DNA from: Thermoanaerobaculia bacterium
GTDB lineage: Bacteria > Acidobacteriota > Thermoanaerobaculia > Gp7-AA8
DNA: 62,127 nucleotides
Direction of reading: 5' to 3'
Assembly (NCBI GenBank): GCA_036387915.1
Contig: DASVSV010000208.1
Coordinates: 1 to 62,127 of the forward strand
In this document: positions 52,452-58,212 of the stretch, piece after piece
Position numbering within the stretch: position 1 is the first letter of the stretch
Layout of the letters: every line of letters begins with the position of its first letter
Translations under genes and position numbers: made by a program
The notes under the pieces: model-generated
What the model was told of the DNA's origin: nothing
Seen by the model: only the letters and a program-made list of their open reading frames with translations
Databases searched by the model: none

Positions 52452-53591
52452 TCAGACCCCGTCGAAGGCGTTTTCGAGGTCGGCGATGAGGTCTTCGATG
52501 TCTTCGATGCCGACGGAGATGCGCACCAGGCCGGGGGTGATGCCGAGGCGGGTGCGGGTTTCGAGGGGGACGGAGGCGTGGGTCATGGTCTCGGGGTGCG
52601 AGATCAGGGTCTCGACGCCGCCCAGGGACTCGGCGAGGGAGCAGAGGCGGACGCGGTCGAGGAACTTCTTCGCGTTGTCGAGCGAGCCGAGATCGAAGGA
52701 GATCATCGAGCCGAAGCCGTTCATCTGGCGTTTGGCCAGCTCGTGCTGCGGGTGATCGGGCAGCCCGGGGTAGTAGATCTTCTGCACCTTCGAATGATTC
52801 GAAAGGTAGTTGGCCATGGCCACGCCGTTCTCCTCGTGGCGCTTCATGCGCACCGCGAGCGTCTTCACGCCGCGCAGCACGAGCCACGAGTCAAATGGCG
52901 AGAGGATCGCGCCGACCGCGTTCTGCAGGAAGCCGATCTGTTCGCCGAGCTCGTCGCTGTTCGAGATCACCGCGCCGCCGACGGAGTCGGAGTGTCCGTT
53001 GAGGAACTTCGTCGTCGAGTGCACGACGATGTCCGCACCGAGGTCGATCGGCTTCTGCAGCCAGGGCGAGCAGAACGTGTTGTCGACGACGACCAGTGCG
53101 CCGCCCTTGTGCGCGACGTCCGCGCAGGCGGCGAGATCGGTCACGGTCATCATCGGATTGGTCGGCGTCTCGAGAAACACGAGCCGCGTGTTCGCGCGCA
53201 TCGCGCTGCGCAGGTTGTCGACGTTCGACGTGTCGACGTACGTGAACTCCAGTCCGAACTTCTCCAGCACGCGGCTGAAGAGGCGGTACGAGCCGCCGTA
53301 CATGTTCTCGCCCGCGATCACGTGATCGCCCGATTTCAAAAGACGGAAAACGGTATCGGTGGCCGACATGCCGGACGCGAAGCAGTGCCCGTACTTGCCG
53401 CGCTCGAGCGCCGCGAGATTCGCTTCCAGCGCCGAGCGCGTGGGGTTCTTCGTGCGCGCGTACTCATAACCCTTGTGCCGTCCGAGCTCGGGCTGCACGT
53501 AGGTCGAGGTCTGGTAGATCGGGATGGTGACGGCGCCGGTATGCGGCTCCGGCTCCTGCCCGGCGTGGATGCAATCGGTGGAAAAACCCAT
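52452..53591 (-). CDS. Cys/Met-metabolism PLP enzyme (cystathionine gamma-synthase / gamma-lyase / beta-lyase family)
   Basis: MGFSTDCIHAGQEPEPHTGAV..PIYQTSTY...YARTKNPTR...HSTTKFLNGHSD (PLP-lysine box)...RISVGIEDIEDLIADL. Confidence 0.9.
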   Translation of the reverse strand: MGFSTDCIHAGQEPEPHTGAVTIPIYQTSTYVQPELGRHKGYEYARTKNPTRSALEANLAALERGKYGHCFASGMSATDTVFRLLKSGDHVIAGENMYGGSYRLFSRVLEKFGLEFTYVDTSNVDNLRSAMRANTRLVFLETPTNPMMTVTDLAACADVAHKGGALVVVDNTFCSPWLQKPIDLGADIVVHSTTKFLNGHSDSVGGAVISNSDELGEQIGFLQNAVGAILSPFDSWLVLRGVKTLAVRMKRHEENGVAMANYLSNHSKVQKIYYPGLPDHPQHELAKRQMNGFGSMISFDLGSLDNAKKFLDRVRLCSLAESLGGVETLISHPETMTHASVPLETRTRLGITPGLVRISVGIEDIEDLIADLENAFDGV

Positions 53592-53609
53592 GTGGCCTCG
53601 CTTTGCTCG

Positions 53610-53681
53610 GGATTGAGGATGCAGGATTGAGGATTGAGGATTCGCCGCCGTCCTCAATCCTCAATCCTCAATTCTCAATCC
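53610..53681. repeat. Inverted repeat built from tandem GATTGAG-type heptamers around a GC-rich loop
   Basis: A perfect 18-bp stem pairs 53623-53640 (AGGATTGAGGATTGAGGA) with 53651-53668, with a 10-nt loop TTCGCCGCCG. The stem extends imperfectly to about 31 nt. It lies in the 83-nt gap between the two transsulfuration genes. Confidence 0.8.
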
Positions 53682-54676
53682 CTTTTGCGCCACCGCGAGT
53701 ACACGCCTTTCGACATGTAGCGCTCCGAGGCGTCGGGGATGACGGTCACGACGCGCTTGCCGCGTCCGAGGCGTTGAGCGACTTCGAGTGCGGCGGCGAC
53801 GTTCGCGCCGGCGGAGGACGCGCCGAGGATCCCTTCCTCGGCCGCGAGCCGCGCGACCATGTCGAACGCGGGATCGTCGTCGACGCGGATCACGTCCGTC
53901 GCCAGCGACATGTCGAGGACGGGAGGGATGAACGCCGATGCGCCGATGCCTTCCACTTCGTGCGGACCTGCTTCGCCGCCTTTGAGGATCGACCCCTGCG
54001 GCTCGACCACGTAACACTGCACGTCGGGCAGCCGTTCGCGCAGGTAGCGGGCCACGCCGCTGAACGTGCCGCCGGTGCCCGCGCCCGCGACCCACGCGTC
54101 GACGCGGCCGTCGAGCTGTTCGAAGATCTCCGGGCCCGTGGACTCGTAATGCTCCTGGGCGTTGAACGGATTCGCGAACTGCTGCGGCACATACGCGCCG
54201 TCGATCTCGCTCGCGAGCTCCTCGGCTTTGGCGATGGCGGCCTTCATGCCGCCGTCTTTCGGCGTGAGAATCACCTCGCCGCCGAGGGCCTTCATCACTT
54301 CGCGCTTCTCGGTCGAGAAATGCTCGGGGACGCAGAGGATGACGCGGTAGCCCTTCTGCACGCCGGCCAGGGCCAGGGCAACGCCGGTGTTGCCCGCGGT
54401 CGGCTCGACGATCGTGCCGCCGGGCTTCAGCAGGCCGGCACGCTCGGCGCGCTCGATCATGCCGATGCCGATGCGGTCCTTCACCGAGAAGCCGGGATTG
54501 AGCAGCTCGAGCTTGACGTAGATGTCCGCGTCGTCGGGGCCGGTGATCCTGCGCAGACGCACCATGGGCGTGTTGCCGATGAGATCGAGGATGGAATCGA
54601 CGGGGCGGGGGTTCGGGCGTGTCAAGCGGCGCGGATCATAACCCAGGGCGCGGCACGTAAAGCGCAGGGTAGGCAA
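53675..54676 (-). CDS. Cysteine synthase / cystathionine beta-synthase-family PLP enzyme (no CBS pair domains)
   Basis: ILDLIGNTPMVRL...NPGFSVKDRIG...GNTGVALA...GTGGTFSG. The start is uncertain: the longest ORF uses TTG 54676, and an internal TTG at 54625 gives a more typical N-terminus. Confidence 0.88.
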   Translation of the reverse strand: MPTLRFTCRALGYDPRRLTRPNPRPVDSILDLIGNTPMVRLRRITGPDDADIYVKLELLNPGFSVKDRIGIGMIERAERAGLLKPGGTIVEPTAGNTGVALALAGVQKGYRVILCVPEHFSTEKREVMKALGGEVILTPKDGGMKAAIAKAEELASEIDGAYVPQQFANPFNAQEHYESTGPEIFEQLDGRVDAWVAGAGTGGTFSGVARYLRERLPDVQCYVVEPQGSILKGGEAGPHEVEGIGASAFIPPVLDMSLATDVIRVDDDPAFDMVARLAAEEGILGASSAGANVAAALEVAQRLGRGKRVVTVIPDASERYMSKGVYSRWRKRD

Positions 54677-55370: not shown

Positions 55371-56225
55371 GTGAAAACCAGCAAAATTAGAATCGGTCCC
55401 GCCGGGTGGAGCTACAAGGATTGGGAGGGCGTGGTGTATCCGCCGCACGGCTCGAAGTTCGATCCGCTCGGCTATCTGGCCGGCTTCTTCGACACCATCG
55501 AGATCAACTCGCCGTTCTACCGGATCCCGCCGCCGAATCACGCCACGAGCTGGGCGCGCCGGGTCGCGTCGAACGCCGATTTCAAGTTCACGACGAAGGT
55601 CTTCCGCGGCTTCACGCACGAGAAGGCCACGCTGGAAAAGGCCGACCTCAAAGCGTTCCGCAACTATCTCGATCCGCTGATGGAGGCCGATCGCCTCGGC
55701 GCGATCCTGCTGCAGTTTCCGTGGAGCTTCAAGAACACACCCGAGTCGCGCGTGCGCCTCGTCGACCTGTTCGAGGCCTTCGCCGACTATCCGAAAGCAC
55801 TCGAGGTGCGCCACGCCACGTTTCAGGAGCCGGAGTTCTACGAGTTCCTCGACGAGCACGACGTCGGCTGGGTGAACGTCGATCAGCCGCTCTTCTCCGA
55901 TTCCGTGAAACCGTCCGACACGGTGACCGGCCCCGTCGCGTATGCGCGTCTGCACGGCCGCAATTACGAGAAGTGGTTCGCGCACAACGAGTCGTGGGAG
56001 CGATACAACTATCTCTATTCGCCGAAGGAGCTCGAGCCCTGGGTCGAGCGCATCGGCAAGATGGCCAAGAACACGGACACGTACGTCGTGACCAACAACC
56101 ACTTCCGCGGCCAGGCCATCCTCAACGCGGGCGAGCTCAAAGAGTCGCTCGGACAGAACGGAGACGTTCCGCCGCAGTTGCAGGAAGCGTATCCGGAGAG
56201 GTTCGAGGGAAAAGGCAAAAGGTAA
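55371..56225 (+). CDS. DUF72 (UPF0759, YecE-like) family protein
   Basis: IRIGPAGWSYKDWEGVVYP....FDTIEINSPFY... has the typical DUF72 N-terminus, and the 284-aa length fits. Confidence 0.85.
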   Translation: MKTSKIRIGPAGWSYKDWEGVVYPPHGSKFDPLGYLAGFFDTIEINSPFYRIPPPNHATSWARRVASNADFKFTTKVFRGFTHEKATLEKADLKAFRNYLDPLMEADRLGAILLQFPWSFKNTPESRVRLVDLFEAFADYPKALEVRHATFQEPEFYEFLDEHDVGWVNVDQPLFSDSVKPSDTVTGPVAYARLHGRNYEKWFAHNESWERYNYLYSPKELEPWVERIGKMAKNTDTYVVTNNHFRGQAILNAGELKESLGQNGDVPPQLQEAYPERFEGKGKR

Positions 56226-56315
56226 AAGGGAAAAGTGGCTTCGCCGGATTCGCGCTGACGCGATGCGACCGCCGCGTAGCGGCACTTTTACCTTTCTCCC
56301 TTTACCTTTCACCTC
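56206..56315. repeat. Imperfect inverted repeat built from purine-rich AAAAGGN-type short repeats around a 44-nt GC-rich loop
   Basis: The arm at 56206-56238 (GAGGGAAAAGGCAAAAGGTAAAAGGGAAAAGTG) matches the reverse complement of 56283-56315 at 26 of 33 positions. The left arm overlaps the DUF72 stop, and the right arm ends 20 nt before the selB ATG. Confidence 0.65.
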
Positions 56316-56334
56316 GCATGTACGATTCGCGCCG

Positions 56335-58212
56335 ATGACTCGCAAGAAACGCGTGGTCGGGACGGCCGGCCACATCGATCACGGAAAAACTTCGCTGGTG
56401 CGCGCGCTGACCGGCATCGACACCGATCGCCTTCCCGAAGAGAAGCGCCGCGGCATCACCATCGACCTCGGGTTTGCGAGCTGGTTCACCGACGACTATC
56501 AGATCGGTTTCGTCGACGTGCCCGGCCATGAACGCTTCGTGAAGAACATGCTGGCCGGCGTGGGCGGCATCGACAGCGTGCTGCTCGTCGTCGCCGCGGA
56601 CGAGTCGATCAAGCCGCAGACGCGCGAGCATTTCGCGATCTGCAAGCTCCTCGGCATCCCCTCCGGCGTCGTGGCCATGACCAAGAGCGATCTCGTCGAG
56701 CGCGACATCCTCGAGCTCGTGCGCATGGAAGTGGAGGAGCTCGCCGCCGGCAGTTTCCTCGAAGGAAAGCCGGTCATTCCGGTCAGCAGCACCACCGGCG
56801 CGGGACTCGACGACCTGCGCGCGGCGATCGTCGAATCCGTCTCTGCAGTCGGCGATCGCGATGCGAGCACGCGCGTGTTCCGTCTGCCCATCGACCGTGT
56901 CTTCACGATGAAAGGCTTCGGCTCCGTCATCACCGGCACGACGCTCTCCGGACGCGTGCGCGTCGAAGACGAAGTGGAAGTGCTGCCCGCCGCGCGCACC
57001 AGCCGCGCGCGCGCGATCCAAGTGCACGGCGAGGCGCGCGACGAAGCGTCGGCCGGCGAACGGACGTCGATGAACCTCGCCGACATTCCGCTCGAAGAGA
57101 TCCAGCGGGGGCATCAGGTCCTGCATCCGAACACGCTGCGGCCGTCGCAGGTCATCACCGTGCGGCTCGAGCTGCTGCCGGACGCGAAGCCGCTCAAGGA
57201 GCAGACCCGCATCCGCTTTCATCACCTCTCCGCCGAGCTCCTCGGCACGATCCGCTTCGTCGACGTCACGGACGGCGAGCTGCGTCCCGGCGACGGTGCG
57301 TTCGCGCAGATCCGGCTCGAGTCGCCGGTGGTCGCGGCCGCGGGCGACCGCTTCGTCATCCGCCGCTACTCACCCGCGTTCACGATCGGCGGCGGCGTGG
57401 TGCTCGACGCGCATCTGTCGAAGCTCAGCCGCGGCACGCGCGCGGAATTGCTGGAGATTCTGGCCAGCGGCTCGCTGCCGCAACGGGTCGAGCTGATCGC
57501 GAAACTGCAGGGACTGCGCGGCGTGACCATCGACGAACTGCAGGCGCGTACCGGCATCCGCGCGGAGTCGCTGACGAAAGAGCTGCGCAGCGTGCCAAAC
57601 GCGGTGAAGACCGGCAGCACGTTCCTGCACGACGACGTGCTGGCGGACTTTCGCCGCAAGGCGATGGAGTTCCTGGACGGCTACTTCAAGAGCAACAAGA
57701 TGGCCGTGAACGTGCCGAAGAGCGAGTTCGTGCAGAAGCTCATCCCCGCCGGCGCGCCGGTGAATTTCCTGCTGAACGATCTCGGCAAGGAGCAGATCGC
57801 GACGCTGCAGGGCGACGTTCTCGAGATCCCCGGCCGCTCCAAAACCCTCGGCGGCGCGGAAGGGGAACTGGCGCGCGAGATCGAAGCGCGCTACGCCGGC
57901 GCGGGACTGCAGACGCCCGCGACCTCGGAGCTGATCAAGACCATCCACCAGCGCACCAAGGTCATCGAAGGGATCATCGGCTTCCTGGTGAAGCAGGGAA
58001 CTTTGGTGCGGCTGGCAGAGGGCGTCTATCTCCATCGCGACGTCATCGCCGCGGCGCGCGAAAAGCTGTCGACGAAGAAGGGCGAGACGATCGACGTCGC
58101 GCAGTTCAAGGACCTGTTCGGCATCTCGCGCAAGGTGGCCATTCCGCTGCTCGAGTACTTTGACAAGGAAGGCGCCACCAAGCGCGTCGGCGATTCGCGA
58201 ACGGTGCTTTGA
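56335..58212 (+). CDS. selB: Selenocysteine-specific translation elongation factor
   Basis: [51 protein letters not shown], and long C-terminal winged-helix repeats. ATG 56335 gives the canonical N-terminus. Confidence 0.9.

Follow-up and report, generated by a model that had tools for sequence, protein, structure and literature searches.

The contig DASVSV010000208.1 of a Thermoanaerobaculia bacterium (Acidobacteriota; assembly GCA_036387915.1), analysed here over its entire length of 62,127 nt (hereafter, the window), contains three hairpins whose arms consist of tandem short units, the first of them lodged in a narrow gap within an operon. The question raised by this locus is whether such hairpins are signals of the host, such as transcription terminators, intercistronic RNA elements or protein-binding sites, or insertions of another origin. 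Comparison of the three copies with the rest of the genome, with sister species and with a family of small gene-bearing cassettes leads to the conclusion, to which we assign a probability of about 0.6, that they are gene-less members of a population of foldback elements similar to the intervening sequences (IVS) of rRNA, transcribed within operons and distinct from terminators. The present genome is denoted G000 (5.73 Mb in 589 contigs, 66% GC; the window is its contig C208) and the other genomes are numbered likewise. All assemblies compared are draft metagenome-assembled genomes, the relatives among them are not independent of each other, the gene models are our own crude calls, and domains were assigned by Pfam. 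The features of the window that are central to the argument are the following.

53609-53682: copy 1, a GGATTGA-family foldback element (left arm 53609-53640, loop 53641-53650, right arm 53651-53682)
56204-56316: copy 2, a degenerate AAAAGGN-family foldback element (arms 56204-56237 and 56283-56316)
61979-62071: copy 3, a GAGGAAA-family foldback element
53675-54676, minus strand: PALP gene (cysteine synthase/CBS-like) upstream of copy 1, with its TGA stop (53675-53677) inside the right arm of copy 1
52452-53591, minus strand: gene for a Cys/Met-metabolism enzyme dependent on pyridoxal phosphate (PLP; cystathionine gamma-synthase/lyase type) downstream of copy 1, with its ATG at 53589-53591
55371-56225: DUF72 gene, with its TAA stop (56223-56225) inside the left (first) arm of copy 2

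Copy 1 consists of GGATTGA units together with the variants GGATGCA and GAATTGA, at 4.5 units per arm; its arms (32 nt each, 91% complementary) enclose the 10-nt loop TTCGCCGCCG. Direct reading bears out the perfect 18-bp stem (53623-53640 paired with 53651-53668) that the initial annotation had placed in an 83-nt gap, which runs on the minus strand from the stop at 53675-53677 to the ATG at 53589-53591, and the transcribed strand is predicted to fold with an energy of -51.1 kcal/mol (z = -7.6). The right arm, which comes first in the mRNA, holds the TGA stop of the PALP gene, and the element ends 8 nt before the GAGG ribosome-binding site (53598-53601) and 18 nt before the ATG of the Cys/Met-metabolism gene. 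Copy 2, between the DUF72 gene and selB (start at 56335), is the weakest of the three, with 34-nt arms that are merely 79% complementary, a 45-nt loop and a predicted fold of -49.2 kcal/mol (z = -2.9). The arms of copy 3 can be drawn as 29 nt at 97% complementarity or as 38 nt at 87% (fold of -57.3 kcal/mol, z = -6.1); this copy is as strong as copy 1. The polA gene starts 17 nt downstream of it (ATG 61960-61962, minus strand), and an open frame continuing past the end of the window has its TAG (62079-62081, read by eye) 7 nt before the element. Within this frame, which runs off the contig end (62079-62127), there is also a short hairpin, GGACCC-GAAA-GGGTCC. A tRNA scan and an Rfam search gave no match next to copy 3, and Rfam searches with the hairpins themselves yielded only sub-threshold similarities to eukaryotic miRNA hairpins and CsrC, which we judge to be low-complexity hairpin artefacts. 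No promoter-like site was found by a sigma-70 scan around copies 1 and 2, and direct reading detects no G3 run, and hence no capacity for a G-quadruplex, in the GGATTGA, GAGGAAA and AAAAGGN units.

That these three sites share one architecture with different units, as the initial annotation had it, is confirmed by a genome-wide census, which also shows that they belong to a large class. A scan of G000 for hairpins (arms of at least 16 nt, complementarity of at least 85%, loop of at most 80 nt) detected 925 loci, 209 of which have periodic arms; after shuffling of the genome in blocks of 100 nt, the same scan returned 25 loci, none of them periodic. The arms repeat every 7 nt in 145 of the periodic hairpins, every 8 nt in 49 and every 10 nt in 13, and their units fall into approximately ten families, including GGATTGA, GAGGAAA, AGGSATG, AAAAGGT, GGTTGCT, CAGGGCG, CAGCTCK, GCGATGA, the 8-mer AGKCTCAY and the 10-mer GTTCCTCGGA. 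The typical element consists of 3-5 tandem units of 7, 8 or 10 nt, a unique GC-rich loop and the reverse-complement units, with a median loop of 28 nt and a median total length of 81 nt. The arm length is 26-30 nt irrespective of the length of the unit, although the number of units varies, up to 11-12. The polarity is absolute: in all 214 pairs of arrays separated by at most 150 nt, across ten families, the unit precedes its complement, and the reverse order was never encountered. The elements begin and end abruptly (GGATTGAGG... to ...CCTCAATCC), and the sequences that flank them are unrelated. The initial description of the arms as purine-rich and low in GC around a GC-rich loop does not hold for every family: the mean GC content is 54% in arms and 66% in loops, and families such as CAGGGCG, GGTTGCT, AGKCTCAY and GTTCCTCGGA have the same architecture.

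The positions of the elements relative to genes are equally characteristic. Nearly all of the periodic hairpins (198 of 209) are intergenic, with 139 located between co-directional genes, 30 in divergent gaps, 16 in convergent gaps and 13 at contig edges; the remaining 11 lie inside gene calls. Measured from the preceding stop codon, an element begins after a median of 7 nt (interquartile range 1-15.5), and it is separated from the following start by a median of 29 nt. This preference for the vicinity of the stop persists where there is at least 100 nt to spare, given that 17 of 29 elements in such gaps are still within 25 nt of the stop. The elements thus occupy the space between the stop codon and the next ribosome-binding site, often supply the stop codon itself, and are tolerated or targeted immediately downstream of stop codons. 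Among the gaps of 100-150 nt, 14% contain a periodic hairpin and 36% contain some hairpin. This adjacency to stop codons, the fixed polarity and the presence of the same arms around PF05635 genes (see below) had all been overlooked in the earlier reading of the window.

A stable hairpin directly downstream of a stop codon is what would be expected of an intrinsic terminator, and the elements could, in principle, be unusual terminators that dispense with the U-tract. Several observations render this extremely improbable, in agreement with the view taken in the initial annotation of copy 1. There is no U-tract downstream of the stem of copy 1, where the sequence reads CCCGAGCAAAGCGAGG, and the close spacing given above places the hairpin in a tight operon, just ahead of the translation signals of the next gene. 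At the level of the class, 139 of the 185 elements that could be classified are co-directional, a setting that makes up 71% of all gaps by count. Convergent gaps hold only 9% of the elements and represent 13% of all gaps when these are counted and 20% when their length is taken, so that there is no enrichment where terminators are expected. Scanning the surroundings of copies 1 and 2 for terminators gave a single match, in the loop of copy 2 (56271-56283), compared to an expectation of 3.6 from shuffled sequence.

Comparison with empty sites in sister species reveals the elements to be insertions. In 20 congeneric genomes, the gap that corresponds to copy 1 contains GGATTGA or GAATTGA elements in five cases, AAATTGA elements in five and a GGTTGTC element in one, and is empty, with only 11-40 nt between the genes, in the remaining nine. 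The insertion points also differ: in two genomes, the element starts 2-3 nt after the stop of a longer tail of the PALP protein, whereas in G000 and other genomes the tail is cut short by the element, which provides the stop; in sister genomes with an empty site the protein ends otherwise (SRWRK-ES* or a longer tail). The different fillings and insertion points imply that this gap was filled at least three times. Five different families occur in the gap of copy 2. Species other than that of G000 have hairpins of GTTCCTCGGA, AGGCAGT, AGCGATG or GGGCGTT there, or else different palindromes or entire genes, or the gap is empty. A motif 8-12 nt before the selB start, CATGTA(C/G)GAT(T/G)CGCGC (window 56316-56340), is kept in most congeners regardless of the element that fills this gap and may be a 5'-untranslated or promoter-proximal signal of selB. 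More generally, among the orthologous sites of G000 and its closest congener G006 (395 kb taken; genes approximately 87% identical), about eight contain the cognate family, about eight a different family, and about ten are empty. Two orthologous sites that lack a gene carry GGATTGA in G000 and AAATTGA in G006. Palindromes that are not composed of heptamers fill equivalent gaps in G006, G045, G048 and G050 (GTAGGGCGGGCTGAAGCCCGCCCTAC and TGTCATCCTGAGC...GAAGGATCCCC). Alignments of filled and empty sites show that the two arms and the loop together constitute the insert; the possibility that the loop is pre-existing local sequence is rejected by its absence from the empty sites.

These comparisons bear directly on the idea that the hairpins arise by local replication slippage and fold-back, with nothing mobile or trans-acting involved. 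Short tandem units are prone to slippage, the number of units is variable and the loops are site-specific, all of which would fit. Nevertheless, this explanation is already hard to hold and we consider it very unlikely, in view of the absolute polarity, the scarcity of seed repeats at the empty sites, most of which have none, and the change of variant by whole families between species at several loci simultaneously. Furthermore, identical units and identical orders of variant units recur at dozens of unlinked loci; for example, the order GGATTGA-GGATGCA-GGATTGA-GGATTGA of copy 1 is found also at contigs C425 and C456, which indicates that the copies are related by copying rather than by independent slippage.

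An alternative is that the arrays are DNA-binding sites for nucleoid or global-regulator proteins. This is how look-alikes in Geobacter metallireducens were annotated, as 'putative global regulator binding sites' of classes 1-3 (GTTGCTYN, TCTCCGTS[Y] and MTYCTGA; Aklujkar et al., 2009, PMC2700814). Like the elements in G000, these consist of 3-5 tandem units of 7-9 nt in opposite-strand pairs with a variable spacer, with several families per genome; the paired sites lie between genes of amino-acid operons, and the IS elements ISGme8/9 occur at a set spacing to them. IHF/HU-type binding was proposed for such paired sites of 3-5 tandem 7-9-mers (PMC2700814). The 3-5 tandem 7-10-nt units on each side in G000 do resemble iterated protein-binding sites, and the constant length of the arms would be compatible with such a function. 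However, the elements are located after stop codons rather than in promoter regions, with divergent gaps containing only 16% of them, a share equal to that of such gaps among all gaps; approximately ten unrelated units would require approximately ten regulators; and the positions are not conserved between sister species. Regulatory binding sites are therefore a distinctly unlikely explanation.

A link to a specific gene is provided by PF05635 (23S_rRNA_IVP). PF05635/S23p is a four-helix-bundle family found in the intervening sequences of 23S rRNA; to our knowledge, it has no known role, even though a structure (2GSC) has been solved. G000 encodes three such genes, each adjacent to arrays of an abundant hairpin family:

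C175:4076-4499: PF05635 cassette with GGATTGA arrays on both sides
C186:8718-9201: PF05635 cassette with GTTCCTCGGA arrays on both sides
C63: PF05635 gene with a GAGGAAA array on one side and the contig edge on the other

The two-sided cassettes of G000 span approximately 420-480 nt, within the range of approximately 420-610 nt across the genus, and pairs of arrays 200-700 nt apart in G000 enclose small genes. PF05635 genes are present in all 35 genomes of the genus, with 1-9 in each; of the 31 loci examined in the genus, 25 have arrays within about 100 nt, approximately 20 of them on both sides. Among 80 PF05635 loci from many phyla, which were fetched using a four-sequence alignment and represent the best matches to the proteins of the genus, 51 have flanking inverted repeats, and in 44 these are periodic (period 7 in 38). 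By comparison, only two of 572 size-matched small genes of G000 have periodic inverted arms, and one of the two is itself a PF05635 gene (44/80 versus 2/572, Fisher p = 1e-43). The association extends to Xanthomonas. A PF05635 protein of G000 matches XCC0516 of Xanthomonas campestris (PDB 2GSC; E = 3.7e-25), and the tables of Rehm et al. (PMC4692102) place XCC0516 between a GGGAATN array at 622544-622583 (plus strand) and a GGGAATC array at 622956-622983 (minus strand), which together span 440 nt, the second array overlapping the XCC0516 start codon. No link between PF05635 and heptamer repeats was found in the literature searched.

The arms can also enclose cargo other than a PF05635 gene, as indicated by a hicA/hicB-like toxin-antitoxin pair located between inverted GAGGAAA arrays in G000 (C28:12444-12995). 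Two other sites in G000, C379:13363-13839 and C507:6738-7527, are orthologous to sites of PF05635 cassettes in G006 and contain, without arrays, a hicAB-like pair and a gene pair of the nucleotidyltransferase type. Small cassettes thus appear to replace one another at fixed intergenic sites.

The cassette of the C175 type occupies a conserved locus across the genus. The contents of this locus are:

GGATTGA arms: G000, G021 and G012
AAATTGA arms: 12 genomes
GAATTGA arms: G002, G003 and G020
GAATTGK arms: G018, G010 and G023
156-nt gene-less internal-deletion derivative with AAATTGA arms: G050
unrelated GCAGAAG hairpin: G011
empty: 5 genomes

The arm variant of the cassette tracks the dominant variant (GGATTGA, AAATTGA or GAATTGA) of the dispersed hairpins in the five genomes for which three-unit 21-mers were counted genome-wide with at most one mismatch (a control with the reversed pattern gave 0). 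The counts for GGATTGA, AAATTGA and GAATTGA 21-mers, in this order, are:

G000, GGATTGA cassette: 123, 0 and 4
G006, AAATTGA cassette: 3, 105 and 3
G012, GGATTGA cassette and a second, AAATTGA cassette: 105, 11 and 3
G003, GAATTGA cassette: 51, 0 and 53
G049, AAATTGA cassette: 13, 20 and 3

Hence the arms of the dispersed populations match those of the resident PF05635 cassette. The subtype of the PF05635 protein goes with that of the arms, such that the second cassette of G012, with AAATTGA arms, encodes a protein of the AAATTGA type. The other cassettes of G006 have GGTTGCT and AGGCTCAY arms, and both units also form dispersed families in that genome. Across the class, 100-kb samples of 16 other genomes contained 11 periodic hairpins in the seven genomes with at least four PF05635 genes, none in the seven genomes without PF05635 and none in the two with a single gene, a co-occurrence with a binomial p of about 0.001 when relatedness is ignored. 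In one of these genomes, G093 (family f8), several of the 25 PF05635 matches are clustered on contig C56. A tree of the cassette flanks (1.6 kb; support values uninspected), in which the arm types seem to be non-monophyletic, is not relied upon here.

Several observations weigh against the interpretation of the hairpins as gene-less relatives of these cassettes. Co-variation of arms and protein within a single cassette of 450 nt is expected from linkage alone, and the genomes compared are, as stated, related. For approximately half of the families of G000 and G006, the assembly contains no copy with a PF05635 gene; in G006 these include the AGCGATG, ACGAGGT and CGGTTGK hairpins. Hairpin density does not scale with the number of PF05635 genes: G093, with 25 genes, has one hairpin per 100 kb, and G037, with 14, has none. 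The proportion of armed loci among the 80, 55%, holds for close relatives of the PF05635 proteins of the genus only, and we know of no catalytic activity in this family; no enzyme that spreads the arms was identified in G000. Finally, the loops are unrelated among copies and to the interior of the cassette. Within one family, loop comparison revealed nothing beyond residual runs of units and short GC-rich matches, with the exception of one 21-nt match in a two-copy 6-mer family. Whole-element copy-and-paste, in the manner of MITEs (miniature inverted-repeat transposable elements) or of REPINs, doublets of repetitive extragenic palindromic (REP) sequences, accordingly fails to explain the spread. 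The notion that the loops are deletion remnants of the PF05635 cassette is unconvincing (p = 0.046 for GGATTGA, p = 0.76 for the 10-mer family). We infer that propagation or homogenisation acts on the arms and not on the loops. The centres of the hairpins, for their part, accept further insertions, judging from the nested elements of G000 (C453:1511-1720, C453:3481-4219, C196:3968-4503 and C365:1014-1291), in which heptamer arrays on the outside surround arrays of a different unit or long palindromes rich in GC; the one on C196 encloses a 5-copy repeat of approximately 33 nt.

The same evidence largely decides against REP elements or REPINs moved by a RAYT (REP-associated tyrosine transposase, of the Y1 family) and against MITEs of a conventional insertion sequence. 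Among the alternatives offered by the initial annotation, a REP-like element comes closest, inasmuch as the hairpins are palindromic, intergenic and abundant, have a species-specific consensus, and turn over between sister species with replacement by other families; moreover, G000 encodes six proteins matching PF01797 (Y1 transposase). Yet the features that define REPs and REPINs are missing. No array was found within 3 kb of any of the six Y1 genes, the arms are not themselves palindromes and lack a GTAG-type head. As for MITEs, inverted ends are present, but there is no shared interior and no consistent target-site duplication in the flanks of 29 aligned GGATTGA copies; no parent transposase was found, and a single in-situ deletion derivative, that of G050, was seen. 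An origin by either of these routes is, accordingly, highly improbable.

A more serious contender, although one that we still consider unlikely, is that the hairpins are intercistronic RNA elements selected by the host, whether for protection of mRNA 3'-ends, as processing sites or for translational coupling. The tight adjacency to stop codons even in roomy gaps and the very stable predicted RNA folds speak for such a role, and the Xanthomonas equivalents are mostly transcribed, with some transcripts ending inside them (PMC4692102). However, nine of the 20 congeners have no element between the same two genes and others have unrelated units there, and the many interchangeable units argue against a specific trans-acting factor for each operon. 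The stems themselves bear no mark of selection at the RNA level. In the co-directional setting, stem mismatches include 69 G.U and 85 A.C pairs in the sense strand (p = 0.23), an A.C mismatch in sense being a G.U pair in antisense only; there is thus no sense-strand excess of G.U, and an RNA-level role, including that in our own proposal, derives no support from this source. Variant units are not mirrored between the arms and stem mismatches are uncompensated. Taken together with the absence of G.U bias, the unmirrored variants imply that complementarity is no evidence of a selected RNA helix; the arms seem to pair simply as a consequence of being built, both of them, from the same unit.

Under the interpretation that we favour, the hairpins and the PF05635 cassettes would belong to a single system of elements, comparable to that of REPINs and their RAYT or to IVS with and without an open reading frame (ORF). 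By analogy with IVS biology, an element transcribed within an operon mRNA would form approximately 30 bp of double-stranded RNA, and RNase III, which is encoded in G000, would probably cut this stem and thereby separate the two cistrons while transcription continues; for the host, the overall consequence would probably be neutral to mildly modulatory. A more specific scheme, in our estimation rather unlikely to be correct, is that the arms are written or converted one by one, without co-copying of the loops, by a sequence-specific process centred on a pentameric PF05635 protein, with about one subunit per unit giving 3-5 units per arm. The gene-less hairpins and the cassette would then form a replicator-host partnership of the RAYT/REPIN kind operated by a non-transposase protein. 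Such arm-by-arm writing would explain why the polarity is absolute, why arms keep their length whatever the size of the unit, why loops are unique and target duplications absent, and why species-wide switches of unit variant match the cassette.

Elements of this general kind have been described before. Xanthomonas campestris and X. axonopodis contain 70-75 convergent stem-loop pairs of GGGAATC heptamers per genome (Rehm et al., 2015, PMC4692102) which, as in G000, comprise approximately 3-5 tandem heptamers, lie mostly between co-directional ORFs and within 50 bp of the stop, and are poorly conserved between sister species. By the description of the Xanthomonas pairs, with at least three units per side in convergent orientation in intergenic, stop-adjacent positions, the elements of G000 belong to the same type. 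The difference is that Xanthomonas has a single G-rich unit, which was studied as a G-quadruplex former, whereas G000 has about ten unrelated units, including 8- and 10-mers, most of which cannot form a G-quadruplex; the Xanthomonas study is silent on a link to PF05635, on fixed polarity and on unique loops (PMC4692102).

The intervening sequences of 23S rRNA exist in ORF-bearing forms of approximately 430 nt (Coxiella, Leptospira) and ORF-less forms of approximately 100 nt (Salmonella, Yersinia). The Coxiella IVS, of 428-444 nt, has a 28-bp terminal stem with the S23p ORF in the loop and is excised by RNase III, and IVS are regarded as selfish inserts (PMC4990558). The elements of G000 share with them the long terminal stem, similar sizes and, in the case of the C175 and C186 cassettes but not of copy 1, the PF05635 gene in the loop; they differ in location, given that IVS are found at the tips of rRNA helices, from which RNase III removes them, and the three copies in the window lie between protein-coding genes. 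The REP, BIME (bacterial interspersed mosaic element) and REPIN sequences of Enterobacteria and Pseudomonas with their RAYTs (PMC3116915) are likewise abundant intergenic palindromes with a species-specific consensus and replacement at orthologous sites, and they are accompanied by a vertically inherited 'signature' gene flanked by repeats of the dispersed population. They depart from the pattern in G000 in that the gene is a Y1 transposase rather than a four-helix-bundle protein, the repeats are single imperfect palindromes instead of tandem arrays, and the spacers are homologous between copies. The architecture thus fails the defining tests for REP/RAYT systems, MITEs and intrinsic terminators, and differs from rRNA IVS in location.

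Two other systems invite comparison. Drosophila foldback transposons have long inverted terminal repeats made of short tandem units around a variable middle; they are, unlike the hairpins of G000, kilobase-scale elements of a eukaryote. The short tandemly repeated repetitive (STRR) sequences of cyanobacteria are tandem heptamers that fill intergenic DNA. They are mostly direct arrays, with few inverted pairs in Nostoc (Rehm et al., PMC4692102).

The kind of element described here was therefore already known, at the descriptive level, from Xanthomonas and Geobacter, and what is added is the absolute polarity, the sharing of arms only, the match between the arms of the cassette and the dominant variant in five genomes, and the observation on XCC0516. 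For annotation, the lesson is that these hairpins are not to be labelled terminators or small RNAs, and that they create or replace stop codons of the genes next to them, together with the C-terminal residues, and break short-read assemblies. Three puzzles that stand apart in the literature searched coincide in these elements, namely the intergenic heptamers of Xanthomonas, Geobacter, cyanobacteria and Acidobacteria, the intervening sequences of rRNA, and the function of PF05635/S23p. G000 and its 34 congeners offer a tractable data set in which the arms that flank PF05635 genes predict the dominant hairpin variant, and they raise the testable hypothesis that the PF05635 protein binds its own heptamer array and drives the spread or homogenisation of the arms.

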